DNA from: Rubripirellula sp.
GTDB taxonomy: Bacteria; Planctomycetota; Planctomycetia; Pirellulales; Pirellulaceae
Direction: 5' to 3'
Length of the DNA stretch: 64,000 bases
Assembly (NCBI GenBank): GCA_965216875.1
Contig: OZ244207.1
Coordinates: 608,001 to 672,000, forward strand
Position numbers and translations under genes: made by a program
Part shown: in pieces, positions 1 to 44,230 of the stretch
Numbering within the stretch: the first letter of the stretch is position 1
Layout: every line of letters begins with the position of its first letter
The notes under the pieces: generated by a model
The model's database searches: none
What the model was told of the DNA's origin: nothing
What the model saw: only the letters and a program-made list of their open reading frames with translations

Positions 1-13
1 AGCTACCGACCCG
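1..13 (-). tRNA. 5' end of a probable tRNA-Phe paralog, first gene of a second array running out of the window
   Basis: Minus strand GGGTCGGTAGCT resembles the 5' end GGGCTGGTAGCT of tRNA-Phe at 24567-24638 and sits at the same position relative to the duplicated leader. Confidence 0.55.
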
Positions 14-111
14 CGATAGGAATTTGGGCTTCAGCTTTTTAGCTGTAGGTAGAGCAGAGCCTCCAGCTCACGTCCTCAACACCTACGGTCTAAATCCCCC
101 AACACCCAATG

Positions 112-145
112 AAAAAGGCTCGATGTCTGAGTGACACCGAGCCTT
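112..145 (-). terminator. Intrinsic terminator / attenuator hairpin, leader copy 1
   Basis: AAGGCTCGGTGTC-loop-GACATCGAGCCTT followed by a T-run on the minus strand; conserved in copy 2. Confidence 0.75.
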
Positions 146-176
146 CATGTAGAAAGCAATTCGCTTAAAGCGAGTG

Positions 177-335
177 TCACGTCAGCAATCGAAAACCAAA
201 CGGATACAGGTCCGCGCCATTGCCTGGCTGGAACGTATTGGCGCTGCGTTCGCTTTCGCTGCGCCAATCGCTACCGCCGAAGGGATTCCCTTCGTGTATC
301 CGTTGGAGTTGACTTGTGGGTTGCTTGGTAAACAT
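177..335 (-). CDS. Putative 52-aa leader peptide, copy 1 (MFTKQPTSQLQRIHEGNPFGGSDW...RLLT)
   Basis: Hand-translated (below the ORF-track cutoff); same length and 37/52 identity with 24808-24966, with several synonymous changes. Confidence 0.7.
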   Translation of the reverse strand: MFTKQPTSQLQRIHEGNPFGGSDWRSESERSANTFQPGNGADLYPFGFRLLT

Positions 336-403
336 CTGACTGAAGAACGGTTGTTCGTTTCTCTTTGCGTGATTTGCGCCAGCATCCGCTGGTTCTGGAT
401 TAA

Positions 404-15820: not shown

Positions 15821-15822
15821 CC

Positions 15823-18309
15823 ATGAAGCATCTTTTCCGTATCGCAACCAATCGATTCACGCTGGACTGGCACCGCGTCCGCGAGACCGACCCCGCGGTT
15901 TTGGCTCAAGCGATGCCCGTGATGGGATTGTTGAGAATGGTGCCGCACGATAGCGGACTCCAGTGGCGGGATTTGATGATGCGCAGCGGTGTGCCTGACG
16001 CAACTGCCGGAGACGCCAGCGATCCGAGTGGGCCACCGTTATACGAGCAGACGGAATACCAACTTTACCTCCGAGGCGCAAACGATGGCGACACGGTGGA
16101 AATGCGGCATCGCGATCCCGTCATCACTCGCTCGCTCAACTCGCAGGAGAACGGGCGAGTCGTCCATGGATCGGTGAACTTTCGCGGCCAGATCGGTCGA
16201 AGTTTGTTCTCGGTCTATGTCAATGGAAAGCGGACGTTGGACTTCGAGGTCGAAGTTTTTCCAACAAAAATTGACTATGCTTCGGATTACCAAGACATCG
16301 TCGCCGACGTGCAGTCAATTCTGATAAATCTGGCGTACGAATACTTGCGATCGACATACCAGATGGGCAAGCTTTCCGGTGATCGCCCACCGTCGAAGCT
16401 GGAATGGCTTGTTTTGATCGAGCAGATCATCGACGAACTCGATACCGCGATGAATCATATCGCACAGCAACCGACACGAGCGCTGATCCGACGGGAGCGA
16501 ACGACGCGGCTGGAACGCATACGGCGTGTCGATTCACGGGTGCGTTCGCAGGTGCGACGCGGTCAGGGCAAGGGCTCGTTTATTCAACTAGGTGGGTTTT
16601 CTGCTCGGCAGCAAATAACGCAACGTCCGGCAGAATTGACCTTGGACACGATGGAGCATCGTTGGCTTCGAAACCAGCTTGTAGCCGTTCAACGGTCGCT
16701 AGGACAAATCGCCGCGATCTACGATTCTGAACTTGAGTTGTCTTCGCGGCGCAAGCGTACATTCGCAGGAATCGCTCGATTGGAAACACGCGTGTCGCGG
16801 CTGTTAAGTTTGGAGCCGATGAAAGAGGCCGACGGTGATCCTCCGGTCGGATTCGCGTCACTACAGCTGGTGTCGGCCCCCGGTTATCGCGAGGCCTATC
16901 GGCTACTGATGTTCCTGAAGATGGGGCTACGGTTGGAGGGTGATCTTGTTAGGCTCTCACTCAAGGACTTGGAGGTGCTGTACGAATATTGGACCTACTT
17001 GACCGTCGTTCGCATCATCCAGGATGAACATGGATCACCCGAAAATCTTGACTCTCTGTTCCGACTGCGATCATCTGGCCTGTCTGTCCTGTTGAAACAG
17101 GGGAAAACACAACAGGTTGCCTTCAAGGCAGGACACCACCGAACCATTCGAGTCAAGTATAACCCTAAGTTTGCGAACCAAGAGACGACCTTAATTCCGC
17201 AGAAGCCCGATATCTTGATTCGCTTTGAAGAGGACGGCTGGCCCTTGATTCAACTGGTAGCGGACGCCAAATACCGACTCGACGCGACGGATCAGTACCG
17301 CCAACAATTCAAATCGTTCGGTCCGCCAACAGACGCGATCAATGTCCTACATCGGTACCGCGACGCAATTTTGGAATTTGACCGCAGCGAATCACAGTCA
17401 GCTGGCTTAAAACGCTCGGTCGTACAAGCTGCCGCACTGTTCCCGATGAACCAATTAGCCGGAGACGACTTCCGCGATAGTCGGCTTTGGCAATCCTTAG
17501 AGCGGCTTGGCGTTGGTGCTATTCCTGTGTTGCCGACCAACCAAGCACTCCTAAAAGAGTGGCTGATGTCGTCGCTAAGGCAGGGCGGATGGTCGATGGC
17601 GGATAGAGCTATTGCCAATTTGGTGGACGAGCGGGCCAGGGATTGGCGTATCGCAGCGAGTGAGCCGGTCCTGGTTGGAACATTGAGGTCGCCTGGGGGA
17701 CGCGAGCATTTGGATTGGGTGCGCAGCGAACGCCGCTACTACCATCCATTCGCCAAAAAACAGCGACGCCAATACACGGTCAAGCAAGTAGCGATCTACA
17801 TTCCCACCGGATTTGAAGTGCCAAACGGAATCCGCTATGTCGCAGATGTGAAACATCTTGAAATTATTGATCGTTCCGAGATTCCGACACCATGGACGGC
17901 AAGACGCAACGAGAAGATGGTGCTGTATCATTTGGGGCCAGTTCACGAGCTGGCGCATGCTGTCGATTTCACGGTAGGCGATTCGATGCCGCCACGAGGA
18001 CGTTGGACGACGCGTCTGGGCCTGGAGCGAGCTCGGACGGTAAGCGAGATTGCTCTGGAGACAGAACCCGAATGGCGTCTTCGGGAATGGCTTCAAGCAA
18101 ACCGATTCAATCACTCCATCAAACTTGATCCACCGAAAGTACTAAGTTCCGAAAACCCGAAAGGTCGTGCGTGGTTTTGTTTCGACTCAGGGAATCGGTT
18201 GAGATTTGACGGCGCGAATCGCTTTCTAAGTCGCTCCGCAGATGGAATTGATCGCTATTACAAACTAGAAGAGCTACTTAAGCACGACCTTAATTCAGCC
18301 GGTCCGTGA
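15823..18309 (+). CDS. McrC-like DUF2357 / PD-(D/E)XK nuclease
   Basis: LYEYW, QKPD..DAKYR, INVLHRYRDAI; 2 nt after mcrB. Confidence 0.85.
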   Translation: MKHLFRIATNRFTLDWHRVRETDPAVLAQAMPVMGLLRMVPHDSGLQWRDLMMRSGVPDATAGDASDPSGPPLYEQTEYQLYLRGANDGDTVEMRHRDPVITRSLNSQENGRVVHGSVNFRGQIGRSLFSVYVNGKRTLDFEVEVFPTKIDYASDYQDIVADVQSILINLAYEYLRSTYQMGKLSGDRPPSKLEWLVLIEQIIDELDTAMNHIAQQPTRALIRRERTTRLERIRRVDSRVRSQVRRGQGKGSFIQLGGFSARQQITQRPAELTLDTMEHRWLRNQLVAVQRSLGQIAAIYDSELELSSRRKRTFAGIARLETRVSRLLSLEPMKEADGDPPVGFASLQLVSAPGYREAYRLLMFLKMGLRLEGDLVRLSLKDLEVLYEYWTYLTVVRIIQDEHGSPENLDSLFRLRSSGLSVLLKQGKTQQVAFKAGHHRTIRVKYNPKFANQETTLIPQKPDILIRFEEDGWPLIQLVADAKYRLDATDQYRQQFKSFGPPTDAINVLHRYRDAILEFDRSESQSAGLKRSVVQAAALFPMNQLAGDDFRDSRLWQSLERLGVGAIPVLPTNQALLKEWLMSSLRQGGWSMADRAIANLVDERARDWRIAASEPVLVGTLRSPGGREHLDWVRSERRYYHPFAKKQRRQYTVKQVAIYIPTGFEVPNGIRYVADVKHLEIIDRSEIPTPWTARRNEKMVLYHLGPVHELAHAVDFTVGDSMPPRGRWTTRLGLERARTVSEIALETEPEWRLREWLQANRFNHSIKLDPPKVLSSENPKGRAWFCFDSGNRLRFDGANRFLSRSADGIDRYYKLEELLKHDLNSAGP

Positions 18310-18471
18310 CCGGGCGAGGCGGGTGGATTCAAAGGACGAATCGATTGCAGGTTTAGCGAACTTGGCGGCGATGAGACGGAATTGCCTAAACGTCTAGGCT
18401 AATAGACCACCATTCAGAAAACGCCCGCGATGGCTGGCCTTTCCTGGGCGTATCGTTCTTGATGATTGGTC

Positions 18472-18795
18472 CTACAGTTCGTCTGCTTCGACCTCGCGGA
18501 CGAAGCGGTTGGTGTCGGACTCTAGGAAGCTGCTGACGACGTTGAACACGGCGTCGCTGAAGCCTCCGATGTTCAGGATGTCCTGGCGATCGGGGCTTGC
18601 GTGTTGCCGTATGGGGCGATGTCGATGCAGACCAACTTCGGATCAGCGATGCCGTGTCCGCGCTGAGTCTTCTTGAACTTGTCCCACTCGGTCATGACGC
18701 CAGTTGAACCGCCTCGGCCGAACCCGTAAGCACGTCCCGAGTTGATCCTGCTTTCGTTGTCGCTGACCAGGACGAGTTCCGCAAACGCACGCGAA
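18472..18795 (-). pseudogene. C-terminal vWA fragment of a Ro60/TROVE RNA-binding protein, with two frameshifts and the 5' part deleted
   Basis: Hand translation: [22 protein letters not shown] / [17 protein letters not shown] / [23 protein letters not shown]. Confidence 0.8.
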
Positions 18796-18799
18796 TGTC

Positions 18800-18895
18800 A
18801 CAGGGTCCGGCCCCGTATCTAGGTTTCCTGAGAAGGGGGCCGGCCGGGAGTCGAACCTGGTTAGCCATGTACTCCACTCCGGCAGTCGAATGTGT
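18800..18895 (-). ncRNA. Y-RNA-like module D, with T-arm and acceptor-like stem; 3' end apparently lost
   Basis: Shared motif TCGACTGC-N6-GGAGTACATG; CCAGG-TTCGACT-CCCGG; CCGGCCCC/GGGGCCGG stem. Confidence 0.6.
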
Positions 18896-18928
18896 TCGGT
18901 TAATGGTTGTGATGCAGTTCGAAAAAAA

Positions 18929-19074
18929 CGCGATCGACGAAGGTATGACCAGAGACTTTACGGTGCTCTGCCACTGAGCTACGGCCCGGCTATGGAAAGC
19001 AGTTGGGCCGGTGGGACTCGAACCCACGACACCCGGCTCCTGAAGCATGTACTCCGAATCGGCAGTCGATCGTG
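18929..19074 (-). ncRNA. YrlA-like Y RNA (module C) with a circularly permuted tRNA domain
   Basis: Terminal stem CGATCGAC/GTCGATCG plus U-run; T-arm GTGGGTTCGAGTCCCAC precedes a loop-closed acceptor stem and D-arm TAGCTCAGTGGCAGAGC; next to the Ro60 remnant. Confidence 0.8.
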
Positions 19075-19082
19075 TGCGATTG

Positions 19083-19448
19083 TTATTTTCGTTTCTTCTT
19101 CAAAGTCTTCCGCAACCGTTTCCACACCACGTGACCACTTTCCGGGTCAAGCCGGACGAGTTGGTTCTGGCGAGTGTCGAAGGTTTTGGTGCCGCCTTTC
19201 GGTCGCTTGGTGTAAACGAACGGCAGGCATACGGCGACGACTTTGAAAGGTTGACCCGCGTCACTGGGCATGTAACGGATCCGAACCGGCTCGTCCGCTG
19301 GAAGTGTGCTGCCAGAGCAGCTCCAGAGGAACGAAGGCAATTCGACGATCTCGTTCAAGACCGTGACGTAGTCTCCTTGTTTGATGTCTTCTCCGGCGAC
19401 TCGTGCTGCCACGGTCGTCTGGTAGTTGGTTTCAGTTGTAGTTTCCAT
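19083..19448 (-). CDS. Hypothetical protein with basic C-terminus inside the Y-RNA cluster
   Basis: 121-aa ORF co-oriented with the operon. Confidence 0.7.
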   Translation of the reverse strand: METTTETNYQTTVAARVAGEDIKQGDYVTVLNEIVELPSFLWSCSGSTLPADEPVRIRYMPSDAGQPFKVVAVCLPFVYTKRPKGGTKTFDTRQNQLVRLDPESGHVVWKRLRKTLKKKRK

Positions 19449-19450
19449 GG

Positions 19451-19587
19451 TTTCATATCGCTTGATGAAAGTAAGTTTTGAGTGTGCAAAGATTCCTCGA
19501 CGGACGCTCGATTACTCGGCGCCCGTGTTCGTAATGACGAAGAAATGAAATTGCACACGCATGGTTACTCTCACGAGCGATATGAAA
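19451..19587 (-). promoter_or_regulatory. Long nested stem-loop directly upstream of the 19448 start codon
   Basis: 12-bp TTTCATATCGCT/AGCGATATGAAA, 8-bp GTGTGCAA/TTGCACAC and inner hairpins. Confidence 0.55.
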
Positions 19588-19606
19588 AACGGCTGACGAA
19601 GCGTAT

Positions 19607-19689
19607 AGAAGTTTGAAGTGGGAAGTTCGAAATTTGAAACGGACTGCCATCCCTTTCTTCACACTTCACCATTCACTTTTGGAACTTCT
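19607..19689. repeat. Heptamer-periodic imperfect inverted repeat (GAAGT type)
   Basis: GAAGTTT GAAGTGG GAAGTTC GAAATTT ... CTTCACA CTTCACC ATTCACT. Confidence 0.6.
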
Positions 19690-19708
19690 CTCGTTGCCGT
19701 GTTTTGTA

Positions 19709-19929
19709 AAAGCCCGACGAAGTGGTCGTCGAGATCGCTGTTCACTGCCATCACTCGCGTGAGTGGAAGCAAACGCCGCTCTTACCGATCGCTTTCACGA
19801 TTGGCAGTGGGCACACACGATTGCATCTACGAGAGATGGAAACCGTGCTCACTACCTTCGGTTGCCCGAAGGATCGCTACCTTAGGACCGTCATAGTTAC
19901 GATGTAATCCCAACAGGCAGTCGAGCTTT
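19709..19929 (-). ncRNA. Y-RNA-like module B carrying a 23S rRNA H69-H71 sequence and multiple hairpins
   Basis: Terminal stem AAAGCTCGAC/GTCGGGCTTT, shared 5' motif, then CGTAACTATGACGGTCCTAAGGTAGCGA; GCAA and GAAA tetraloop hairpins. Confidence 0.7.
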
Positions 19930-19941
19930 GTGCTGGTTTGC

Positions 19942-20014
19942 GACGGATCGACGAGGTAACAGCTCAGATGGGACACATTTTCAAGATGTAATCCGAGCCT
20001 GCAGTCGATTCGTC
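19942..20014 (-). ncRNA. Minimal Y-RNA-like module A
   Basis: GACGAATCGAC/GTCGATCCGTC stem, shared motif TCGACTGC-N6-GGATTACATC, GCTCGGAT/ATCTGAGC stem. Confidence 0.65.
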
Positions 20015-20016
20015 AG

Positions 20017-20087
20017 AAACGCTGGTGGGAGTCGAACCCACTTAGACCGGGTTGCAGCCGGTTGCCTGGCCATCTGGCTCCAGCGTG
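20017..20087 (-). tRNA. tRNA-Cys(GCA)
   Basis: Anticodon arm ACCGG-CTGCAAC-CCGGT. Confidence 0.85.
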
Positions 20088-20095
20088 TTCTCAAG

Positions 20096-20167
20096 CGTCC
20101 TCGCCAGGAATCGAACCTGGTCTTCGACCTTCGCAGAGTCGCGTGCTGTCCGGCACACTCCGAGAAC
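20096..20167 (-). tRNA. tRNA-Arg(GCG)
   Basis: CGACT-CTGCGAA-GGTCG. Confidence 0.8.
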
Positions 20168-20192
20168 ATGGATGGCTAATCAAAGAGCCGAG

Positions 20193-20264
20193 TAACCCGC
20201 CCAGGAATCGAACCTGGTCCGACAGTTTCGAAGACTGTCATGCTATCCAGCACACCCGCGAGTC
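20193..20264 (-). tRNA. tRNA-Arg(TCG)
   Basis: ACAGT-CTTCGAA-ACTGT. Confidence 0.85.
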
Positions 20265-20289
20265 ATGTTGATTGTTAGTTAGTCACAAG

Positions 20290-20363
20290 AGCCGACGACT
20301 GGGTTTGCACCAGCATGAGCCGCTTTACAAAAGCGGTGCCTTTCTGCATCGAGCCACGTCGGC
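20290..20363 (-). tRNA. tRNA-Thr(TGT), atypical T-loop
   Basis: CCGCT-TTTGTAA-AGCGG; T-loop TGCAAAC. Confidence 0.7.
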
Positions 20364-20380
20364 ATGGGTTGCTGCATCAG

Positions 20381-20452
20381 TAGCCCGACCAGGAATCGAA
20401 TCCGGAACTTCTGGTTAGAAGCCAGAGATGATGTCCGTTTCACCATCGAGCC
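20381..20452 (-). tRNA. tRNA-Arg(TCT)
   Basis: TCTGG-CTTCTAA-CCAGA. Confidence 0.8.
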
Positions 20453-20465
20453 GTTTGCAAGCAAG

Positions 20466-20551
20466 CGGAAGGCGAGGGAGTCGAACCCTCATCACCCGAA
20501 GGTGGCACGCGTTAGCAGTGCGGCCCGGCAAACCGTATCCGGCTGCCTTCC
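20466..20551 (-). tRNA. tRNA-Ser(GCT)
   Basis: Loop CTGCTAA, long variable arm, G73. Confidence 0.8.
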
Positions 20552-20563
20552 GAAATCGTTGAG

Positions 20564-20636
20564 TGGACCGGAAGGGAATCGAACCCTTCTCACCGATCTT
20601 GCAAGGATCAGTCGCCCCCTTGGAACATGCCAGCCC
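20564..20636 (-). tRNA. tRNA-Ala(TGC)
   Basis: TGATC-CTTGCAA-GATCG; G3:U70. Confidence 0.85.
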
Positions 20637-20647
20637 ATTTCACTCAG

Positions 20648-20718
20648 AGGTCCGTCCGGGAATTGAACCCGGTCTTCGTCCATACCACAGACGCGTGCTG
20701 CCGCAACACTTACAGACC
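20648..20718 (-). tRNA. tRNA-Thr(GGT)
   Basis: CGTCT-GTGGTAT-GGACG. Confidence 0.8.
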
Positions 20719-20729
20719 ATTCGTTTCAG

Positions 20730-20802
20730 TGATCGCGGATGGAATCGAACCATCGATCTCCTGCATGTCACGCAGGCGTCTTCGCCGCTGGACCACGCGA
20801 CC
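20730..20802 (-). tRNA. tRNA-Val(GAC)
   Basis: CCTGC-GTGACAT-GCAGG. Confidence 0.85.
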
Positions 20803-20816
20803 GTAGTCTTGATGAG

Positions 20817-20892
20817 TAGTCGAGATAGGAGTCGAACCTACAAAATCACAAGCCTCTCGTGCTTGCCGCTATGCCTGTTTGCGTACTCGACC
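20817..20892 (-). tRNA. tRNA-Leu(GAG), short variable region, C33
   Basis: CAAGC-ACGAGAG-GCTTG. Confidence 0.7.
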
Positions 20893-20899
20893 GAGAAAG

Positions 20900-20968
20900 T
20901 AGCGGATCCGGGGGTCGCACCCGACGGTCCTGGCTTATGAGGCATGGCTGAGCACTGGCCCATCCGCG
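20900..20968 (-). tRNA. tRNA(CAT), initiator-like or degenerate
   Basis: Loop CTCATAA; unpaired 1:72; shortened D-arm; weak anticodon stem. Confidence 0.55.
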
Positions 20969-20972
20969 TTGT

Positions 20973-21415
20973 GTTAGCTTGTTAGCAATTAGCCTGTTAG
21001 CGACTAGCTTTCTATTTCTATTGGGGCACACTCATGCGAGATCACAAAAATCTTCGAGCGTTCGAACTGGCCGACGAAGTTGCTTTGCTCACTTACAAGT
21101 TCACGCGGAGTTTTCCGCGTGAAGAACAATTCGGGTTGACATCCCAAATGCGTCGAGCTGCCGTATCAGTTCCATCGAATATCGTCGAAGGCTGTGGTCG
21201 TCACACGGAAGCGGAGTTCCTCCGATTTCTCGACGTTGCATACGGTTCACTCAGGGAACTTGAGTACCAAACCTCGCTTGCAGTTCGCTTGGAATTCGTC
21301 TCGAACCACGGGGATTTCACTGCCAAGCTAACTGAAGCCTCCAAAGTCCTAGGCTCACTGATCCGCTCCATCCGAAAAAGCTAATTGCTAACTCGCTAGC
21401 TGCTAATCGGCTAGC
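20973..21415. mobile_element. Four-helix-bundle cassette bounded by GTTAGC/GCTAAC periodic inverted repeats
   Basis: Left arm 20973-21008, right arm 21380-21415; lies between two tRNA(CAT) genes. Confidence 0.6.
21034..21384 (+). CDS. Four helix bundle protein (23S rRNA IVS protein / Avd-like family)
   Basis: FPREEQFGLTSQMRRAAVSVPSNIVEG..FLDVAYGSLRELEYQ; antisense to the array. Confidence 0.93.
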   Translation: MRDHKNLRAFELADEVALLTYKFTRSFPREEQFGLTSQMRRAAVSVPSNIVEGCGRHTEAEFLRFLDVAYGSLRELEYQTSLAVRLEFVSNHGDFTAKLTEASKVLGSLIRSIRKS

Positions 21416-21419
21416 TCAG

Positions 21420-21489
21420 TTGCAGGTCTCGGTATCGAGCCGAGCACACCGACCTCATGAAAGTCAGTTGGACACCTGTCGCACCTGCA
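21420..21489 (-). tRNA. tRNA(CAT) Met/Ile2, shortened D-arm
   Basis: TGACT-TTCATGA-GGTCG. Confidence 0.6.
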
Positions 21490-21498
21490 ATGTTGAAG

Positions 21499-21582
21499 TA
21501 GCCAAGGCGAGGGTTGAACTCGCACGCCACGATGGGCACGACATTCTGAGTGTCGCGTGTCTACCGGTTCCACCACTTGGCT
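21499..21582 (-). tRNA. tRNA-Leu(CAG), long variable arm
   Basis: CGACA-CTCAGAA-TGTCG. Confidence 0.88.
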
Positions 21583-21597
21583 GTGTTTGAATCGAAG

Positions 21598-21671
21598 TAC
21601 TGCGGGAGGGAGTCGAACCCTCAAACACGATCGTTTGAAATTCGCCGCTTTGCCGGTTTGCGTACCACAGC
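21598..21671 (-). tRNA. tRNA-Leu(CAA), short variable region
   Basis: Loop TTCAAAC; imperfect anticodon stem. Confidence 0.7.
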
Positions 21672-21683
21672 ATGTTGATTGAG

Positions 21684-21755
21684 TACTGAGGGCGGGAGTC
21701 GAACCCGCAAGCACTTGTTCCTAAGACAAGCGGCTCGCCGTTGGCCTACCTCAGC
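21684..21755 (-). tRNA. tRNA-Leu(TAG), short variable region
   Basis: CTTGT-CTTAGGA-ACAAG. Confidence 0.8.
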
Positions 21756-21767
21756 GTTTGCGAAAAG

Positions 21768-21838
21768 TGGAGCACCGGGGAATCGAACCCCGATTTTCTA
21801 CGTGCAAAACAGACGTCTTCCCGTTGGACGAGCGCCCC
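21768..21838 (-). tRNA. tRNA-Ala(TGC), second copy
   Basis: Loop TTTGCAC; G3:U70. Confidence 0.8.
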
Positions 21839-21864
21839 ATATCGTTTCGTTAACGTTGCAAAAG

Positions 21865-21938
21865 TGCCCAGAGCAGGAATCGAACCTGCAAACATCCGGG
21901 TTTAAGCCGGACCGCTCTGCCGATTGGCGTATCTAGGC
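21865..21938 (-). tRNA. tRNA-Leu(TAA), short variable region
   Basis: TCCGG-CTTAAAC-CCGGA. Confidence 0.8.
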
Positions 21939-22002
21939 GTCGTGTGTTGGCCGCCGTGGGAAGAACGCGATTGCTCACGCCCTTCCTTTGGCTGCCAACG
22001 TG

Positions 22003-22262
22003 TTATGCTCGGAGTCGCGGCGTGCTGTCGCCCGTTGACTTGCGGTGGTTTCGGATTGCCTTGCGGTAGTTCGGAACACTGTCGCCTTCGACGATCACGT
22101 CGCCGACCGTTTCGACAACCCAGCCATCGACCCAGCGGTCGTCGCTATCTTTCAGCTTCAGTATTTCGCGAATTGCGTCGGGATATACGAAGTTGTGACG
22201 ACGCTAGCACCAGCGACGATGCGTCTCATCGCACATTGCGCGTACTTCACGTTTCTGGTCAT
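22003..22262 (-). pseudogene. Frameshifted small hypothetical gene inside the array
   Basis: AAGGAG RBS; MTRNVKYAQCAMRR..TTSYIPTQFAK / LKLKDSDDRWVDGWVVETVG..RKAIRNHRKSTGDS. Confidence 0.6.
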
Positions 22263-22314
22263 CGTCGTCTCCTTGTCAGTTGGTAAGAATAATCATTGTT
22301 TGCGAAGGTCGAAG

Positions 22315-22386
22315 TAGTCCAGGATGGAATCGAACCATCTTTTCCTGTTTGTAAGACAGGCGTCGTAGCCGTTGGACCACAGGACT
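22315..22386 (-). tRNA. tRNA-Val(TAC)
   Basis: CCTGT-CTTACAA-ACAGG. Confidence 0.85.
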
Positions 22387-22410
22387 TTTTCAAAATGTCG
22401 ATCCGGAGAG

Positions 22411-22481
22411 CACGTCCCCAAGGATTTGAAACCTGACTAACTGGTTTGGAATCAGCAGTGCTACCGTTACACCAGAGACGT
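22411..22481 (-). tRNA. tRNA-Trp(CCA)
   Basis: Loop TTCCAAA; imperfect T-stem. Confidence 0.75.
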
Positions 22482-22498
22482 GGATGTGTTTTCAAAAG

Positions 22499-22583
22499 TG
22501 GGAACGCAAGGAATCGCACCTCTCGCCGGCTACCACACAATTAGAGGCAGAAGGGTTACAACCTCCCGTGTGGAAACGCTCCC
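22499..22583 (-). tRNA. tRNA-Tyr(GTA)-like, lacking a D-arm, with enlarged variable region
   Basis: GGGAGCG/CGTTCCC acceptor; GGAGG-TTGTAAC-CCTTC. Confidence 0.6.
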
Positions 22584-22601
22584 ATGTATCAATCGAACAA
22601 G

Positions 22602-22685
22602 CGGAAGCCGTGGGACTCGAACCCACAACGGTGATTAGCCGCAGCTGTTTTCAAGACAGTGTCCTCATCCGGCCGGGTGACTTCC
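22602..22685 (-). tRNA. tRNA-Ser(TGA)
   Basis: Loop CTTGAAA, long variable arm. Confidence 0.8.
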
Positions 22686-22706
22686 GTAGTGCGTCATCAA
22701 ACGCAG

Positions 22707-22781
22707 TGACGTGAGCGGGAAACGAACCCGCGGACTCCTGGATGAAAACCAGGCAATTCTGCCATCAGAATCTACCACGCC
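22707..22781 (-). tRNA. tRNA-Glu(TTC)
   Basis: CCTGG-TTTTCAT-CCAGG. Confidence 0.75.
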
Positions 22782-22806
22782 GTTTGGTTGCTTCGATCGA
22801 AGCGAG

Positions 22807-22878
22807 TACCGCATAGGAGTTTCGATCTCCTTCCTGCTGCCTGAGAAGCAGCCGACCTAGCCAGTAGTCGAATGCGGC
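22807..22878 (-). tRNA. tRNA-Glu(CTC)
   Basis: GCTGC-TTCTCAG-GCAGC; T-loop ATCGAAA. Confidence 0.75.
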
Positions 22879-22892
22879 TTGTTTGCAAAAAG

Positions 22893-22965
22893 CGATGGCA
22901 ACGGGAGTCGAACCCGCAGCGACTTGATAGACAATCAAGCTTCCTTCCGAGAGGAACTTGCCACC
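22893..22965 (-). tRNA. tRNA-Asp(GTC)
   Basis: CTTGA-TTGTCTA-TCAAG. Confidence 0.75.
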
Positions 22966-22980
22966 GAAAATGTTCGCGAG

Positions 22981-23056
22981 GGTGACTAACCGGAATTGAA
23001 CCGGCGACAAACTCATTCACAGTGAGTCTCTGGAAACCAACACCAGATCTAGCCAC
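22981..23056 (-). tRNA. tRNA-His(GTG)
   Basis: ACTCA-CTGTGAA-TGAGT; C73. Confidence 0.78.
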
Positions 23057-23058
23057 AG

Positions 23059-23129
23059 TCGGGTATCAGTGAGTCGCACACTGTCCATGCGTGGTCCCAA
23101 ACCACACCGCTTACTCCAAGCTATACCCG
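23059..23129 (-). tRNA. tRNA-Pro(TGG)
   Basis: Loop TTTGGGA; C1-G72, A73; T-loop TGCGACT. Confidence 0.7.
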
Positions 23130-23141
23130 AAACAAAAATAG

Positions 23142-23216
23142 CACCGGAGACTGGAATCGAACCAATGGACTCCTCGTTCAGAGCGAGGTGCAGCGACCAG
23201 CAACTGCTACTCCGGC
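23142..23216 (-). tRNA. tRNA-Gln(CTG)
   Basis: CCTCG-CTCTGAA-CGAGG. Confidence 0.8.
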
Positions 23217-23238
23217 GTTTTAATCAAATCGTCAATAG

Positions 23239-23306
23239 CACTCCGTCCGGGAATTGAACCCGATCTGCGGGCTTCAAAGGCCCACGTCGCGACTACGCGC
23301 CGGAGA
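23239..23306 (-). tRNA. tRNA-Gln(TTG), shortened D-arm
   Basis: TGGGC-CTTTGAA-GCCCG. Confidence 0.65.
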
Positions 23307-23324
23307 GAGTTTTCCCGATGAAAG

Positions 23325-23396
23325 AGTGTCCTGCGGGAGTCGAACCCGCCTATCTGAGTTGGAAGCCCAGCACCTTTGCCGCTCGGCCAAGGACAC
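23325..23396 (-). tRNA. tRNA-Gly(TCC)
   Basis: CTGGG-CTTCCAA-CTCAG. Confidence 0.85.
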
Positions 23397-23403
23397 GATG
23401 GAT

Positions 23404-23478
23404 GCGGAAGTTTGAAGGGCGAGGTGTGAAACGAAGCGAGCTATTCCACACTTCTGGCTTCACCCTTCAAACTTCGCG
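23404..23478. repeat. Heptamer-periodic inverted repeat spacer (GAAG type)
   Basis: GAAGTTTGAAGGG ... CCCTTCAAACTTC. Confidence 0.6.
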
Positions 23479-23481
23479 AAG

Positions 23482-23553
23482 CTCCGGCGGAAGGACTCGA
23501 ACCTTCACTCGTCTCCTTAACAGGGAGCCGCCTTACCATTGGGCCACACCGGA
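23482..23553 (-). tRNA. tRNA-Asn(GTT)
   Basis: CTCC-CTGTTAA-GGAG. Confidence 0.85.
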
Positions 23554-23569
23554 TTGTTAACTCATCAAG

Positions 23570-23643
23570 TCAGGATGGCTGGATTTGAACCAGCGATCTC
23601 GTGTTTCCGGAACACGCGGAGTGCCAGACTTTCCCACATCCTG
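23570..23643 (-). tRNA. tRNA-Pro(CGG)
   Basis: CGTGT-TCCGGAA-ACACG. Confidence 0.8.
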
Positions 23644-23651
23644 ATTTGCAA

Positions 23652-23722
23652 AGCGCCCAGTGGGAGTCGAACCCACACTTCCGCCATGGCAAGGCAGTAG
23701 GCTGCCACTACATCATGGGCGC
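23652..23722 (-). tRNA. tRNA-Gly(GCC)
   Basis: CTGCC-TTGCCAT-GGCGG. Confidence 0.82.
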
Positions 23723-23757
23723 AGATTTGCATCACAACCAAATTGTCAAAGATCGGA

Positions 23758-23830
23758 TCAGGCTTCAGGTGCCAGGCTTTAGACGTCAGGTTGTATTCCT
23801 GAAGTCTGACTCCTGATTGCTGAAGTCTGC
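23758..23830. repeat. Heptamer-periodic inverted repeat spacer (TCAGG type)
   Basis: TCAGGCT TCAGGTG CCAGGCT TTAGACG TCAGG ... CCTGAAG TCTGACT CCTGA. Confidence 0.6.
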
Positions 23831-23835
23831 TTTAG

Positions 23836-23906
23836 AGCACCGAGCCGGAATTGAACCCGCATCACCTCGTTACGACGGAGGTATCTTGCCGTTAGAAGAT
23901 CAGTGC
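23836..23906 (-). tRNA. tRNA-Thr(CGT)
   Basis: Loop GTCGTAA; one stem mismatch. Confidence 0.7.
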
Positions 23907-23913
23907 TGGAGTA

Positions 23914-23995
23914 GCGGATTAGCCTTTAGCTGTTTAGCTGATTAGGTTTCTTCTTTGTCTTTCCTAATCAGCTAACTCGCTAACAGCTAACCTGC
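23914..23995. repeat. Heptamer-periodic inverted repeat spacer (TTAGC type)
   Basis: TTAGC repeated ... GCTAAC repeated; same unit as the four-helix-bundle flanks. Confidence 0.65.
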
Positions 23996-24002
23996 TCTTT
24001 AG

Positions 24003-24075
24003 TGGGACCGGTGAGAATCGAACTCACATCGTTCGGTTTAAGAGACCGATGCATTACCTTGTCTGCCACAATCCC
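24003..24075 (-). tRNA. tRNA-Lys(CTT)
   Basis: TCGGT-CTCTTAA-ACCGA. Confidence 0.87.
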
Positions 24076-24095
24076 ATGTGTTTTGTCTTGTCCGG

Positions 24096-24168
24096 TCGGC
24101 GCGGAAGGAATCGAACCTTCAACCCTCGTCTTATGAGGACGCCGCCCTTACCACTGAGCTGCACGCCG
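24096..24168 (-). tRNA. tRNA(CAT) Met or Ile2
   Basis: CGTC-CTCATAA-GACG; canonical D and T arms. Confidence 0.85.
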
Positions 24169-24195
24169 GAGGCGCCAATGGCGCGGCGCCGTAAG

Positions 24196-24268
24196 TGGGG
24201 CCGGAGAGATTCGAACTCTCGCCGAACGGCTTAAAAGACCGTCATGCTGCCTGTTACACCACAACCCC
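24196..24268 (-). tRNA. tRNA-Lys(TTT)
   Basis: ACGGT-CTTTTAA-GCCGT. Confidence 0.87.
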
Positions 24269-24332
24269 ATGATTGGTCGGGCGTAGGCGTTTCAATCGCA
24301 ATGCAAGAAGCATGTCGGTTTCTCTTTCGTGT

Positions 24333-24391
24333 TATCGAACTCAGCGCGACCCGCGTATCAGGCGGATTTGGGCGACCAGCCCTCGACTACC
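24333..24391 (-). pseudogene. 3'-truncated tRNA-Ile(GAT)
   Basis: TCCGC-CTGATAC-GCGGG; breaks after GTTCGAT, with no 3' T-stem or acceptor strand. Confidence 0.7.
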
Positions 24392-24408
24392 GTGTTGTTG
24401 TAAAAAAG

Positions 24409-24509
24409 TCGGACACCTCGGAGTCGAACCGCCCGTCGCGGAGCGACCCACAAATGAACGCAGTCTCCTGCTCCCAAAGCAGGCGTGCTTCCATCTGCAC
24501 CTGTATCCG
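24409..24509 (-). tRNA. tRNA-Pro(TGG) with an insertion of about 30 nt in the T-stem
   Basis: CCTGC-TTTGGGA-GCAGG; removing 24432-24461 restores CTCGG-TTCGACT-CCGAG. Confidence 0.65.
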
Positions 24510-24566
24510 ATGTTGTTTGTGGTGTTCGCTGCAGCCGATTCCGTCGGCGCATATCTTCTTTGTCAG

Positions 24567-24638
24567 TGGGCCGGGAGGCGCTCGAATCCTCGTCTGCGGT
24601 GCTTCAAACCGCCGCTAGACCGTCTCAGCTACCAGCCC
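24567..24638 (-). tRNA. tRNA-Phe(GAA)
   Basis: GCGGT-TTGAAGC-ACCGC. Confidence 0.78.
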
Positions 24639-24640
24639 GC

Positions 24641-24740
24641 GTTAGCTTGTTAGCAGTTAGCTTGTTAGCGGTTAGCTTGTTAGCGGTTAGCCAGAAAGTG
24701 CTTTCCTAACTCGTTAATCGGCTAATGGCTAATCAGCTAA
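24641..24740. repeat. GTTAGC periodic inverted repeat
   Basis: Seven GTTAGC units, then five CTAA-type units. Confidence 0.75.
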
Positions 24741-24776
24741 AACAAAAGGCTCGATGCCTGCGTGACACCGAGCCTT
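24739..24776 (-). terminator. Intrinsic terminator / attenuator hairpin, leader copy 2
   Basis: AAGGCTCGGTGTC-loop-GGCATCGAGCCTT-TTGTTTT. Confidence 0.75.
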
Positions 24777-24807
24777 CATGTAGAAAGCAGTTCGCTTGAT
24801 GCGAGTG

Positions 24808-24966
24808 TCACGTGAGCAATCTTGTGCCTAAGGAATACAGTGCCGGGATATTGCCAGGCTGGAACGTATTGGCGCTGCGCTCATTGTCGCTGGGCCAATC
24901 GCTACCGCCGAAGGCATTCCCTTCGTGTATCCGCTGGAGTCGATTTGATTGCTGTTTGGTAGACAT
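24808..24966 (-). CDS. Putative 52-aa leader peptide, copy 2 (MSTKQQSNRLQRIHEGNAFGGSDW...RLLT)
   Basis: Homologous to 177-335; stop codon lies within the antiterminator arm CGTGACAC. Confidence 0.7.
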   Translation of the reverse strand: MSTKQQSNRLQRIHEGNAFGGSDWPSDNERSANTFQPGNIPALYSLGTRLLT

Positions 24967-25020
24967 CGAACTGAAAAGGCTCTTACTCGCTTCTCTGGGT
25001 GTGACTTGTGTTCGGGGTTA

Positions 25021-25154
25021 ATAGACGCTTTCGATTCCGAATGGTTCGCGAAAAGTCTCGTTTCTTGTGAACCTGTGCAAAACTAGATGCGTTTGCCAGC
25101 GAGATTATTTCATCGGCCTAGAAAAAACTTTGCCATGTTTTGCTCGAATGTCAA
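25021..25154 (-). promoter_or_regulatory. Tandem promoter candidates, copy 2 (TTGACA-16-CAAAGT plus two ECF-like)
   Basis: Conserved with 404-524. Confidence 0.55.
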
Positions 25155-25330
25155 ACGAATTCAGCGTCACTTCTGTACTCGGGTGATTCTCGAATTCTGA
25201 AAACTCTTAAACTACCGACATCAGGCATTCTTGGTTGCATGCTCTTCGCAGTAGCTTGCACATTGACGCTCCTCAGACAAGCAAATCCCTCATTCTGCTC
25301 GGTGCTCGATTCTGGAAACGCACGCAGCGG

Positions 25331-28300
25331 TTATTGGGTCAGCTCAATCACGAAGTTGTCTGTTACTCCGTTTCGGGTGGTGTAGGTCAGCACGTTCTGG
25401 TCGTCACCGGTGATCGTTGCGTTCAAGTCGGGGTTCGTCTGCGGCAAACCCGACGTCGCTTTCACAAGCTTGCATCGCTTGTGAGCAAGCACCACTTTGA
25501 TGACGCGCGGTGGCGATTGCTTGGGCCCGTCTCCTCGGCTGACCAAAATCGTTGGGTCAGAAATAGCTAGCTGAATCGTGTCTGGTCCACTTGGCTTGAC
25601 CATGATGTTCAGCCGCCTGTCGGTGCTTTCAATGTGTGGCAACTGAGTTGAGATTCTGGGCGTAAAAAAGATGTAGCTGTAGAGATCGTCGTCTTTGCTG
25701 TAGACCACATGAGCGATGTCATCTTGACGCAGCACCTTGTAACGCGGCTCTTTCGCGTTCCGCTTGACGGTTTCCAAAAACTCGGCTGGCTCCTGCCCAT
25801 CGCTGTTCAACAGAATGCAGTATCGATGGTCGGATTCCTGTGCAGCATCGCCGTGGTCAAGCCATGCGGTTACAAATTCACCGGTCGCCTTCTCGCCTTC
25901 ATCGCTTAGCTTTGATGACACGGCATTCTCCTGATCGGCCCATTGGACATGCAGCTTGCAGTTCTGCCCCTGGGGAATGATCCACGCGTGTCCATATGGT
26001 GAAATTACAAAGCAATTCTGTGACGAATCAACAACTTGGTTCACGCCTTTGTTCTTGAAGGTTCGCGAATTCACCACGACCTCCGGGCTCGCCAAAGACC
26101 AACGTCGAAGGTCTCGGCACTGCCAGTTTTCGTCGCCAACCGCATTCTGAAAGAGCGTCGTTTCCATGTGGCGCGAAACCGGTGAGTCGAAGGTTTTGAA
26201 CCCTGTGCCAAGACAAATGATCTGATTCCCAAGAAAGTGATAGGACTTGTTGCCGTGGAAGTCGCCAGCATGCTTTTTGAGTCCTTCGAGTCGGAGTCGC
26301 GGGTTGATGTGAATGGCCAGATTTCCCCATTGGCCCAGCTGTGAAGCTGTCTCTCCGAAAGTGACGGAGCCTCCGTAATGCAGGCTGTGCCCGTTTTCAT
26401 CGGTCTTCACATCGTTGTCACCACCAAAACCACGAACTCCCAGGGCCCTGATTTCTTCCATGCTCAGCTTTGGCATCGTCACGCCCGAAGTGCGAGACCA
26501 GTCGTAGCCGGCCGCATTTCCGCCGAGGTGAGCCGCATGCCGGTTTCCGAGTTTGCTTTCATGGATAAACAAGGATCCGAAAGCGCGATGCGGCAAGTTG
26601 AAGATGCGGCCTTCGGGTTCTGGCACCGAGCTCGCCATGTAGTTGAAGCTGCGCGCGTGCACCTTGGTCATTCCCGTCACGTAGACAGATGCGGCGGACC
26701 AGTTCAAATCGAGATGAAACTGCTGTGCCGCTTCTATTGGGATGCCTTTCGTTTTGGGGTATTTGTCATGAATCTGTTGAAGGTTGTATGGTTCCAGGTG
26801 ATAGTCGCGCAACACCGATGCCAGGTACTTTCTAGCTGCCGGGACTTGCTCCCAGTCCATCGCGTAGAACTGATCGAACCCGCCCGTCGCCCCGATTTGA
26901 TTGATAAAATCCGTTTCCCGAGGGCTAATCGGCTCGAGTTTTCCAAAGCTGTTGCTCAACCACGGGTTGATGTCGTGGATTGTCGGAAAGCAATACAGGA
27001 ACCGAATGCTGTGTTCGGCCAGGTTCTTGTACGTGATGCGGTCTTCGGGCTGCTCAAGCGGCGTCCCCAGGAAGCGAAGCCCTTCCTTCAGGTAGCCGCC
27101 ATAATTCCCGCCCCAGTAGCCAATCAAATGGCCGTGGTGAAAGAACGTGTAGTCCGGTTTGATCATGCTCATCGCGCCGTAGTCTGAGATCGCAATCGTG
27201 CGATTCCAGCGCCGCCGGAGCGCATCCAAATCCCGATAGAGAACCTTGTCATCTAATTCGGTGAACGACGCCAGGTAAGCCTGTGATGCCGCGACGCCAA
27301 CTTCTCGTGTCGCTCCTGGGATGTCCGAATACAGGAATCGGTTATACGAGTTTCCCCACTTCGCCAGGCCGGACAGATAGTCTGCGTACTCAAGGTCCTG
27401 GGGAGTTCCGAGCGCTTTGAACACGGGAACGATTCGCAGCAGGACCGGCAGGTCACGAGCAACATACGAGCGATGCAGATACTCCCCTCCGTTCTTGCCA
27501 TCCTCAAGGCCGTGATACCGAAACCAGTCCAGCGTCGCCTTCACTTTGTACTCAAGCTGCTTGCAGCCGGGATACTTCAGCCACTGGTTGATGTCGTTAG
27601 ATAACTGCCCGCGCATCAGGCCGACTTTGGGAATCCATTTGTATTTCATCGAGCGATTGCTGGCCGCCATGTGGTCGCCCGGAAACAGCAACACAGCGTC
27701 GGGAGATCCCTGTTGCAGGATGTTCATGCGGTGGGGATAGCGGTAGGTGCCGTCATCGTTCCTGACCAGCACTTCATCCAGAAATTTCTGCACCTCGAGT
27801 CGGACCTGCTCCGGAGCATCAATAGAAAGATCAACTTCTGCCTGTTCGCCCCGAAGGCTTGTGATGTAAGCCTGTTGTTTCTCAGTCAAGCTTTTGGGCA
27901 CAGGATTCTTTTTCGCGAACTTTCCAAAGTAGATCGTTCGGCCACCATTGTCGTCGGGAACATAGGCCGTCGGGTCATACGGCTCGTTCGGGATACCGTG
28001 ATTGACGATGTCGGGAATGTCCTCGCCACCGATCTCCAAAATGTTGCGTCCTGGATCGCTGTCAGAAATCAAGAGCCGATCGAGGTAGAAGGTTCCGGAT
28101 TCGATCGTCGTCGGCGCCTGAATCAGCAACTCGTCAGTTTCTGGGGTGAGGCCGCTCGCATCAAGCCCATCGACCGCGAATGGTTCCGCCTTCTTGACGA
28201 ACAGCGAATGCCAATGGCGATACGTCATCCAGTAAGTGGCGACTTTCGTTCCCCGCCTGTCGCGCCGGTTATCCTTGCAAAAAACCCGAATCGTCGTGCC

Positions 28301-31269: not shown

Positions 31270-31295
31270 ATTTTCACTAGTTGGGGGCAAGCATT

Positions 31296-34101: not shown

Positions 34102-34274
34102 GTGTGAGTTGGTCGATGAGACGTCTGCCAAGAAGCCCTTTGTAGCCGTATATAAGTGCCTGGAAGTCGATGTATACGTCCAAAGCTGATGATCGCAACA
34201 TGTTGGTTCGATCAGGAACGGATAGTGATTTGATTCGGACGATTTCTGCGGTTTGTTACAGCAACGATTAGTCG

Positions 34275-44227: not shown

Positions 44228-44230
44228 GGA

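Follow-up and report, generated by a model that had tools for sequence, protein, structure and literature searches.

A long tRNA array behind a candidate leader attenuator, with Y-RNA-like modules and a Ro60 remnant, in a Rubripirellula genome

The 64,000-nucleotide stretch of DNA analyzed here, hereafter the window, comprises bases 608001-672000 of the single contig (OZ244207.1) that makes up the complete 8.26-Mb genome of Rubripirellula sp. (assembly GCA_965216875.1; Planctomycetota, Pirellulaceae). On its minus strand lies a unit that consists, from 5' to 3', of an upstream block, a leader open reading frame (ORF), a terminator, a tRNA array, four modules resembling Y RNAs and the remnant of a Ro60 gene (Table 1). 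A preliminary description, made from the sequence alone, had taken these features for one co-oriented unit under the control of an attenuator, and the co-oriented unit was borne out. We propose that it is probably one copy of a mobile "long tRNA array" (L-array) cassette that is common in Planctomycetota, contains about 35 supernumerary tRNAs and would be switched by the translation of its leader. Positions are those of the window unless they are assigned to the contig.

The tRNA array and its leader element

Thirty-one tRNA genes were called in the array by ARAGORN with default settings, and 24 of these also reach or exceed the Rfam gathering score for tRNA. With relaxed settings (-ps80), 40 calls were obtained, 37 of them in the array proper, the rest being two in the Y-RNA-like modules and one inside an ORF on the opposite strand. 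The six extra calls in the array are Pro (88 nt), Thr(CGT), Ser(TGA), Ser(GCT) and two with the anticodon CAT; Rfam backs three of the six: Thr(CGT) attains the gathering score for tRNA, and both Ser genes are weak matches below it. The preliminary description had counted 39 tRNA genes serving all 20 amino acids, and neither statement was reproduced. No tRNA-Tyr was found in the array, either by ARAGORN including the relaxed run or by homology to the Tyr genes of relatives, and the Tyr slot of related arrays, between Leu(CAA) and Glu/Leu, is empty both in the window and in the locus of its closest relative (L038). The homologue of Ile(GAT) at about 24317-24408 is degenerate; relatives have Ile(TAT) as the orthologue of a CAT tRNA at 24094-24168, and Ile is otherwise covered only if this tRNA is of the Ile2 type. 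The 88-nt tRNA-like gene on the minus strand at 24423-24510 has a Pro(TGG) anticodon arm and an extra arm of about 35 nt; a 106-nt stretch is 100% identical in L038, so the gene is conserved rather than debris.

The array is collinear with that of L038 at 88-96% identity, and the two classes of sequence within it have diverged to different extents. The tRNA genes are 97.4% identical, with 67 mismatches in 2611 compared bases (2.6%) and 4 gap columns, versus 93.2% for the spacers, with 86 mismatches in 1264 bases (6.8%) and 115 gap columns, which indicates purifying selection on the array tRNAs. These tRNAs are supernumerary in that, with the exceptions of Arg(GCG) and Glu(CTC), every anticodon of the array is also covered by 51 dispersed genes, and array and dispersed tRNAs of the same anticodon share a median identity of 62% (range 57-90%). 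The processing context of the array tRNAs is that of the host: a T follows the discriminator base in 30 of the 31 array tRNAs and in 50 of the 51 dispersed genes, and CCA is encoded by no array tRNA. Judged from sequence, the array tRNAs look functional and supernumerary, and the locus displays the hallmarks of an L-array, namely tens of co-oriented tRNA genes with short spacers and extra isodecoders rather than new anticodons. Outside the array, a second tRNA-Cys gene was observed at contig position 195222, which may be the dispersed Cys gene that is 90% identical to the array Cys, and at contig position 3282034 ARAGORN called a tRNA with the amber-reading anticodon CTA.

Upstream of the array, a terminator precedes the first tRNA, in most cases that for Phe, by a few dozen bases; its consensus across arrays is CCCGGTGTCAC...GACACCGGG, with a T-run after it. 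Of 14 arrays with Phe as their first tRNA, 13 have an ORF of 33-68 codons that stops (with TGA, once with TAA) inside the motif GTGACAC, and 35-40 nt separate this motif from the 5' arm of the terminator. In all 44 distinct sequences that were aligned, the frame closes at a stop codon inside GTGAC(A/G)C, at the same place in the RNA element. All of 15 leaders have at least 42 open codons in the leader frame (median 69), versus 6 of 30 cases for the other two frames (medians 32 and 16), and in 13 of the 15 neither of the other frames is as long. Leader peptides are similar within subfamilies, as for the first 23 or so residues, which are kept in four leaders, and dissimilar between subfamilies. 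The locus accordingly contains a conserved, putatively translated leader ORF and an intrinsic terminator directly before the genes that would be regulated.

GTGACAC is the reverse complement of GTGTCAC, which spans the end of the terminator 5' arm and the start of its loop, so that the helix formed by these two motifs and the terminator helix are predicted to be mutually exclusive. Across the 44 sequences, 98.9% of the cells of the terminator alignment are paired, with 23 compensatory cells in three pairs, a value as high as which was found in none of 500 shuffles. For the antiterminator, 92.5% of the cells are paired, versus 17-49% when the partner strand is slid, and in its core of seven pairs 304 of 308 cells are paired. 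One compensatory change in the antiterminator is the replacement of TGA by TAA, which is matched by a change from C to U in the partner. With the 52-codon ORF, the terminator and the alternative pairing kept in 44 sequences, the attenuator put forward in the preliminary description is supported by comparative evidence as a predicted RNA switch.

The leader element, the strongest result of the analysis, also recurs beyond the loci from which it was defined. A pattern of the leader element in IUPAC code, which misses the window genome's own copies as their 3' arm differs, gave 37 matches in 30 of 200 other genomes of the order, and none when read backwards as a control. At 29 of the 30 loci found in this way, a co-oriented tRNA gene lies within 1.5 kb downstream; in 20 of the 30 the first tRNA is Phe and starts 12-104 nt past the pattern, and a leader frame of at least 36 codons is present in 28 of the 30. 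As an interval of 12-104 nt is mostly too short for a promoter, transcription of most of these arrays would have to come through the leader terminator. In the genome studied here, the leader frame and terminator are intact before both tRNA arrays, and a 428-nt stretch ahead of the first tRNA shows 75% identity between the two. Two metatranscriptome runs yielded contigs with 90-99% similarity to tRNAs, Y modules and leader, but these come from related arrays of other organisms and the libraries may have contained DNA, so they carry too little weight as evidence of expression; nothing follows from the missing cover of the IVS ORF, the 121-aa ORF and the far upstream region.

Table 1. Features of the tRNA array unit and of the second array in the window
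Feature	Position	Strand	Remarks
Conserved upstream block (candidate promoter/5' UTR)	25000..25160	-	TTGACA at 25154-25149; aligns with the leader of the second array and with locus L026, partly with L038
Leader ORF	24808..24966	-	52 codons; TGA stop at 24810-24808 inside conserved GTGACAC
Antiterminator 5' strand, GTGACACTCGC	24801..24811	-	Overlaps the leader stop codon; complementary to the terminator 5' arm
Intrinsic terminator	24745..24777	-	14-bp hairpin, then T-run
GCTAA-rich palindrome between terminator and tRNA-Phe	24651..24744	-	Related contigs skip 92 bases; interval only about 12-100 nt in relatives
tRNA array, Phe to Cys	20016..24638	-	Within 4.6 kb
GCTAA- or AG-rich palindromic insertions	23907..24001 and 23754..23834		Bridged by related contigs
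Insertion	21938..22312		Bridged by related contigs
Element with GCTAA-rich flanking inverted repeats	20969..21418		Related contigs skip 448 bases
23S-rRNA-IVS-protein gene (PF05635) in the 20969-21418 element	21034..21384	+	Pfam 106.8 bits, cut-off 33.8
Y module 1, small, YrlB-like	19944..20012	-	Weak match to Rfam YrlB, 30.5 bits, E 0.0046 (19942-20014); 6-bp closing stem
Y module 2, B type, with a stretch common with 23S rRNA	19710..19928	-	9-bp closing stem
Conserved 121-aa ORF among the Y modules	19083..19448	-	Homologues at the same place in 15 other loci (one partial); 36 invariant columns
Y module 3, YrlA-like, with tRNA-like T and D arms	18930..19073	-	8-bp closing stem
Y module 4, 3' strand lost	18800..18895	-	5' motif at 18888; edge of a deletion of about 1.6 kb relative to L038
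Ro60 pseudogene	18475..18797	-	Last ~112 codons (~20%); frameshift
Second, paralogous array: 3' end of tRNA-Phe and leader/terminator	1..340	-	Runs leftwards out of the window; element at 112-180

Y-RNA-like modules, Ro60 and the spread of the cassette

The four modules between the array and the Ro60 remnant share the 5' motif NACUGCC...GGAnUnCAU. A loose form of this motif occurs only 59 times in the genome on both strands, so four copies within 1.2 kb represent a real cluster; one further pair of the motif was observed at contig positions 962459 and 962683, 224 nt apart. In the upstream regions of 75 loci and the window, a closing stem of at least 6 bp was found for 254 of 301 motifs versus 6 of 301 control 9-mers, the partner strand being sought after (U/C)UC, 45-340 nt downstream of the 5' motif. 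The inner four pairs of this stem covary (CGAC/GUCG 154, CAAC/GUUG 50, UGAC/GUCA 22, GAAC/GUUC 10). The pattern of motif and closing stem is the architecture of Y RNAs, in which the two ends pair in a stem that carries the Ro60 site, and the modules are putative ligands of Ro60. The preliminary description had spoken of four related noncoding RNA modules, and the relationship holds for all four as far as the 5' motif is concerned; three of them close, and for module 4, which is without its 3' strand, no closing stem was found.

At the Rfam gathering scores, only tRNAs were found in the window and in the loci of seven relatives, and no YrlA. Module 3 aligns with the whole of the YrlA model (RF02553, model positions 1-114 of 114) from 18931 to 19057, with 43.5 bits and an E value of 2.8e-7, below the gathering score of 69. 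It nonetheless agrees with the features by which Chen et al. (2014) recognized YrlA, namely an E value below 5e-5, a distance of at most 4 kb from Ro60, the same strand and a tRNA-like domain, with an E value that refers to a 7.6-kb search space, a distance of about 130 nt that is measured from the Ro60 remnant, and a model and search space that differ from theirs.

Module 2 and 18 other distinct modules of the B type contain a nearly invariant 21-nt core, AUGACGGUCCUAAGGUAGCGA, and in module 2 the stretch is identical to the genome's own 23S rRNA gene at 21 of 22 nt. In the window copy and three others the match extends upstream, and the hairpin is rebuilt with a 9-nt loop identical to that of the 23S rRNA. 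The matching site is presumably the helix 69 region, if we number it as in E. coli. Searches of the 8.26-Mb genome with profiles of the B type returned the 23S gene as the only non-self match at E values up to 0.1, with an E value of 0.0016 for a profile of 6 sequences and of 0.021, which falls below the nhmmer inclusion threshold, for one of 19 sequences. A collinear similarity of the module to 23S rRNA past the core of about 22-27 nt was unsupported by nhmmer, and matches to later helices that had been made by eye were dropped. A role of module 2 as a decoy or adaptor is a matter of speculation.

The conserved 121-aa ORF that lies among the Y modules had no significant Pfam match and no match to a PHROG family. 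A structure model predicts an SH3/KOW-like barrel with a basic C-terminal helix (mean pLDDT 68), and its best Z score of 7.2 lies within the range of unmatched models. Other proteins were observed between array and Y modules in related loci: an ORF at about 11900-13280 of L017 with a KxDG-type motif recognized by eye, which may be an RNA ligase, and, in the same slot of other cassettes, a SEC-C-motif protein (L019) and an HExxH protein (L021).

The Ro60/TROVE remnant reported in the preliminary description was confirmed as the frameshifted C-terminal end of such a gene. It corresponds to residues 447-512 and, in another frame, 520-558 of the intact 558-aa Ro60 of L038, with 77% identity in each piece, and it matches the C-terminal end of frames of 530-640 aa in 19 of 60 related genomes. 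The intact frames of this kind showed both the vWA_Ro60 and the TROVE family of Pfam above the cut-offs in seven of seven tested. The two pieces themselves matched no Pfam family and gave no match and one chance match, respectively, in the PDB, so their identity as Ro60 follows from the intact genes of relatives only. Relative to L038, a loss of about 1.6 kb has removed the 3' strand from the last Y module together with roughly 1350 nt from the start of Ro60. The window contains no TROVE (HEAT-repeat ring) domain in an intact frame, and no TROVE match was found anywhere in the genome by a search that was positive in two control genomes. With Ro60 a pseudogene and no second TROVE gene, a ribonucleoprotein of Ro60 and Y RNA cannot form in this organism. 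The link to RtcB is likewise not applicable here, since the two rtcB genes, at 4.36 and 5.36 Mb, lie megabases away from the window at 0.61-0.67 Mb.

Comparison with relatives revealed how the parts of the cassette are combined. One genome per species was scanned for Ro60, and the best 80 of 154 stretches with a close Ro60 were compared, 47 of them with at least 3 kb of upstream sequence. The 80 loci come from Pirellulaceae, Planctomycetaceae, Thermoguttaceae and other families, and their Ro60 is up to 92% identical across families. Co-oriented upstream tRNA genes number at least 3 in 32 of the 47 loci, at least 10 in 22 and at least 20 in 14, with a maximum of 43; at least two Y motifs are present in 42 and the B core in 21 of the 47. 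Over the best 80 loci, 630 tRNA genes are upstream on the same strand, one is upstream on the opposite strand and four are downstream. The gene order from Phe to Cys is broadly common to related arrays. Conserved linkage of the array, leader and Ro60/Y RNAs, on which the preliminary description had staked its proposal, is therefore found in relatives, with tRNA genes upstream in those 32 Ro60 loci, and the proposal was not refuted on this point. A second sample, collected by the leader only in other families of the order, comprised 17 downstream regions, 13 of them about 13 kb long; one of these 13 arrays had Y motifs together with a match to Ro60, and 12 were without Ro60. Ro60 and the Y RNAs are hence a frequent but optional passenger at the 3' end rather than a fixed component, the constant core of the cassette is the leader plus the array, and the complete combination seen in the window is one decayed variant.

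In a congener, the array is reduced to 4 tRNA genes and Ro60 is intact, and the cassette stands at a different place in the genome with no flanks in common. The patchy distribution and horizontal transfer that characterize L-arrays are also indicated by the differing flanks, by Ro60 identities of up to 92% across families and by the occurrence of the leader in 30 of 200 genomes. Moreover, 69 phage records contain a Ro60 match, and Ro60 is situated amid tRNA genes in Myxococcus phage Mx1, whose Ro60 has 38% identity along its full length, and in Streptomyces phage BoomerJR, which shows that the pairing of a tRNA cluster with Ro60 is already present in annotated genomes. A gene for a Band-7-like membrane protein was observed at the edge of the tRNA/Ro60 region of BoomerJR and another directly after the second array of the genome studied here, which may be a coincidence. 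In ten metagenome runs from six studies (marine, sediment, rhizosphere, algae), 22-26% of the 31-mers of window positions 18400-25400 were present, so that pieces of the cassette circulate in nearly unchanged form in many habitats.

Insertions, the second array and the genomic surroundings

Contigs of related arrays bridge five stretches of the window array, which identifies these stretches as insertions (Table 1). The palindromic ones are rich in GCTAA or in GAAG/CTTC and may represent miniature mobile elements or relics of elements of the intervening-sequence (IVS) type; similar hairpins were observed near 23410-23470 and 19610-19670. The genome has two PF05635 genes, one in each tRNA array, the second being at contig positions 593675-594022, and many are found in the arrays of relatives. 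These copies look like an IVS-type element that targets operons of structured RNAs.

The second array (contig 591000-608012; loci L023 and L024) consists of 14 and 3 tRNA genes split by an insertion of about 12 kb, which contains genes for a Swt1-like HEPN protein, a DUF5343 protein, a small RelA/SpoT-type synthetase, two serine recombinases and a terminase-like protein. It ends at a Band-7/SPFH gene, without Y RNAs or Ro60. The surroundings of the first array, at 12740-18309 and 30436-48250, have the look of an island of defence genes and mobile elements. The genes observed there encode an McrB-like AAA_5 protein with a DUF2357/PD-(D/E)XK partner, a QueC-like protein, a nucleoside deoxyribosyltransferase fusion, ParA-like and SIR2-like proteins, a Ser/Thr kinase and a UvrD-like helicase, and an integrase ORF at 47034-48239 runs into tRNA-Asn at 48177-48250.

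Proposed control of the array and its place among known systems

Ribosome-mediated attenuators control trp-type amino-acid operons and also occur in antibiotic-responsive leaders such as those of bmrCD and mef/msrD. The planctomycete element resembles them in its short ORF, in a stop codon beside or inside the antiterminator strand, in its predicted mutually exclusive helices and in the proposed read-through when the ribosome lags. It differs from them in that the regulated genes are tRNAs rather than proteins and in that the leader has no evident run of codons for a single amino acid; a region 1 that would sequester region 2 did not turn up, although no systematic search for one was made. We propose that in most relatives the array would lack a promoter of its own and would be reached only by polymerases that pass the leader terminator. 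A ribosome moving in step with RNA polymerase would reach the leader stop codon and mask the 5' strand of the antiterminator, region 3 would then pair with region 4, and the array would be off. If the ribosome lags or stalls, GUGAC(A/G)C would be free to pair with GUGUCAC of the terminator 5' arm, the polymerase would read through, and the whole tRNA set would be made. Loss or cleavage of tRNAs, inhibitors and starvation are possible causes of such a lag. This presumed direction of the switch amounts to the logic of the trp leader without its codon specificity, so the putatively translated leader would act as a gauge of general translation capacity, and the presumed benefit of induction would be a replenished supply of tRNAs. 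The same read-through would also yield Y RNAs and Ro60 wherever the cassette is intact, and in the window genome, in which a deletion of about 1.6 kb and a frameshift have destroyed the Ro60 end, only the leader-gated tRNA supply could still work as designed.

A set of observations weighs against this mechanism. The conservation of the antiterminator consists mostly of invariance, with 4 compensatory cells in two pairs and a value that is reached by 5 of 500 shuffles, and its three outer pairs are weak (29-40 of 44 sequences). Taken alone, the helix energies favor the terminator (-12 to -24 kcal/mol) over the antiterminator (-3 to -12 kcal/mol), and kinetic control would be needed. In classical attenuators the energies are of the same order, and the weaker helix wins by forming first. 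The promoter motifs of the preliminary description were not confirmed: a scan of 18300-25500 for sigma-70-like consensus sites gave none versus 3.0 expected from shuffles, although a TTGACA does lie in the upstream block that is conserved with two related leaders. In the window itself the inserted palindrome places the terminator about 105 nt from tRNA-Phe, where a new promoter is possible, and a run labelled with the species and presumed to be RNA gave contigs without a match to the stretch. To these are added signs of decay, which are considered below, and the precedent of Anabaena PCC 7120, whose trn operon is controlled by 9-nt direct repeats over the -10 box and start site and not by attenuation, according to the available text of Santamaria-Gomez et al. 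(2021; PMC8421152).

In a rival view, the small ORF would be an ordinary short gene with its own terminator, the array would be constitutive or have an unrecognised promoter, and GTGACAC/GTGTCAC would be a protein-binding site or have another purpose. The scarce covariation of the antiterminator, the conservation of leader peptides within subfamilies, the want of a promoter model for the phylum and of any scored promoter, and the promoter repeats of Anabaena (available text of PMC8421152) all agree with such a view. It is nevertheless improbable in light of the position of tRNA-Phe in relatives, 12-104 nt past the pattern and mostly too close for a promoter, and of the stop codon, which has a fixed place in 44 of 44 sequences while the peptides differ between subfamilies and whose one change is matched in the partner strand; moreover, 29 of the 30 elements found by the pattern only precede tRNAs. 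A decaying selfish passenger with no present function in the window genome also appears unlikely, although the losses are plain: Ro60 is a pseudogene, a Y module is cut off, Ile(GAT) is degenerate and Tyr is missing, at least five elements have been inserted, the sister array is split by 12 kb, the array of the congener is down to 4 tRNAs, and the distribution is patchy, the remnant query having matched 19 of 60 relatives. Against it stand the lower divergence of tRNAs than of spacers (2.6% versus 6.8%, with 4 versus 115 gap columns), the 31 genes that still pass ARAGORN at default settings, and the intact leader frame and terminator of both arrays.

A different purpose is suggested by the phage connection. 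The cassette might be a counter-defence module of the phage type, in which divergent tRNAs replace host tRNAs hit by anticodon nucleases or tRNA-modifying toxins, Ro60 and Y RNAs handle damaged RNA, and general stress is not the real signal. The occurrence of Ro60 among tRNA genes in Mx1 and BoomerJR and the 69 phage records with a match point in this direction, as do the strong dissimilarity of array and dispersed tRNAs, the location of the cassette elsewhere in the genome of the congener, and nearby conflict genes (McrB-like/DUF2357-PDDEXK and SIR2-like in the window, the HEPN RNase and small RelA/SpoT synthetase in the insertion of the sister array). Neighborhood alone is weak evidence, however, phage structural genes were not found flanking the cassette, and the leader would react to any slowdown of ribosomes; we regard this purpose as rather doubtful, and it is compatible with the attenuator model. 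The broadest form of that model, in which arrays gated by a gauge of translation capacity travel with Ro60 and with Y modules that imitate tRNA T and D arms and 23S helix 69, the modules being adaptors or decoys for RNA quality control or for a 23S-binding factor and the whole a mobile rescue kit, is offered tentatively and with low confidence.

The stress-inducible tRNA arrays of cyanobacteria to which the preliminary description referred are indeed in print, with control by promoter repeats: the long trn operon of PCC 7120 is silent and is induced by translation inhibitors, and Planctomycetes are listed among the phyla with L-arrays, in the available text of the same study (Santamaria-Gomez et al., 2021; PMC8421152). 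The window cassette shares with that operon dozens of co-oriented supernumerary tRNAs, horizontal spread and nearby RNA-processing genes. It differs in its leader and in Ro60/Y RNA, since the available text of the Anabaena study reports no leader ORF or attenuation and does not mention Ro60 or Y RNA; an HNH endonuclease and rtcB adjoin the Anabaena array, and neither adjoins the window array. Attenuator logic would explain the behavior of the Anabaena array mechanistically, though promoter repeats are what the available text of that study reports (PMC8421152).

As to Ro60, a neighbouring YrlA is already recorded for Pirellula staleyi, Planctomyces brasiliensis and Rhodopirellula baltica in the available part of Chen et al. 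(2014; PMC4201824; Table S1); candidates that overlapped tandem tRNA genes were dropped there, and arrays are not discussed in that part. Similar to bacterial Ro60 (Rsr) with YrlA/YrlB as depicted there, the planctomycete Y RNAs lie within 4 kb upstream on the same strand, and one module has tRNA-like T and D arms. Unlike the Rsr systems, a planctomycete locus has up to 8 modules of several types, one with a 23S stretch, joined to the 3' end of an array, and in the window Ro60 is a pseudogene and rtcB is unlinked. Among large phages with Ro60 (Mx1, BoomerJR, mycobacteriophages and phiLo), the gene is likewise embedded among many tRNA genes, and Y-like RNAs upstream of the phage Ro60 are described for Thermus phage phiLo in the available part of PMC12135203. 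In contrast to the compact and chromosomal cassette, phage tRNAs are interspersed with protein genes, and the identity of phage Ro60 is at most 38%. L-arrays, Ro60/Y RNAs and ribosome-mediated attenuation are each known; in the literature searched, we found no tRNA arrays coupled with Ro60, no published account of leader-peptide control of tRNA arrays, such as a leader gate on a whole tRNA set, and no description of an rRNA-like Y RNA comparable to the 23S-like module.

Spare tRNA arrays are widespread, and the reason for keeping them and the way in which they are turned on are known for one cyanobacterium only. As the leader element is short and highly conserved, it can be used as a search key for such arrays, and the circuit that we propose is simple and testable. 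It may offer a handle on the reason for the frequent association of Ro60 and Y RNAs with tRNA genes and on the use of variable Y modules, including the 23S-like one, as well as on resistance to tRNA-cleaving toxins and ribosome-targeting antibiotics. If a leader attenuator does stand before a whole tRNA set, the cell or a mobile element would read its translation capacity there and top up its tRNAs when ribosomes lag.

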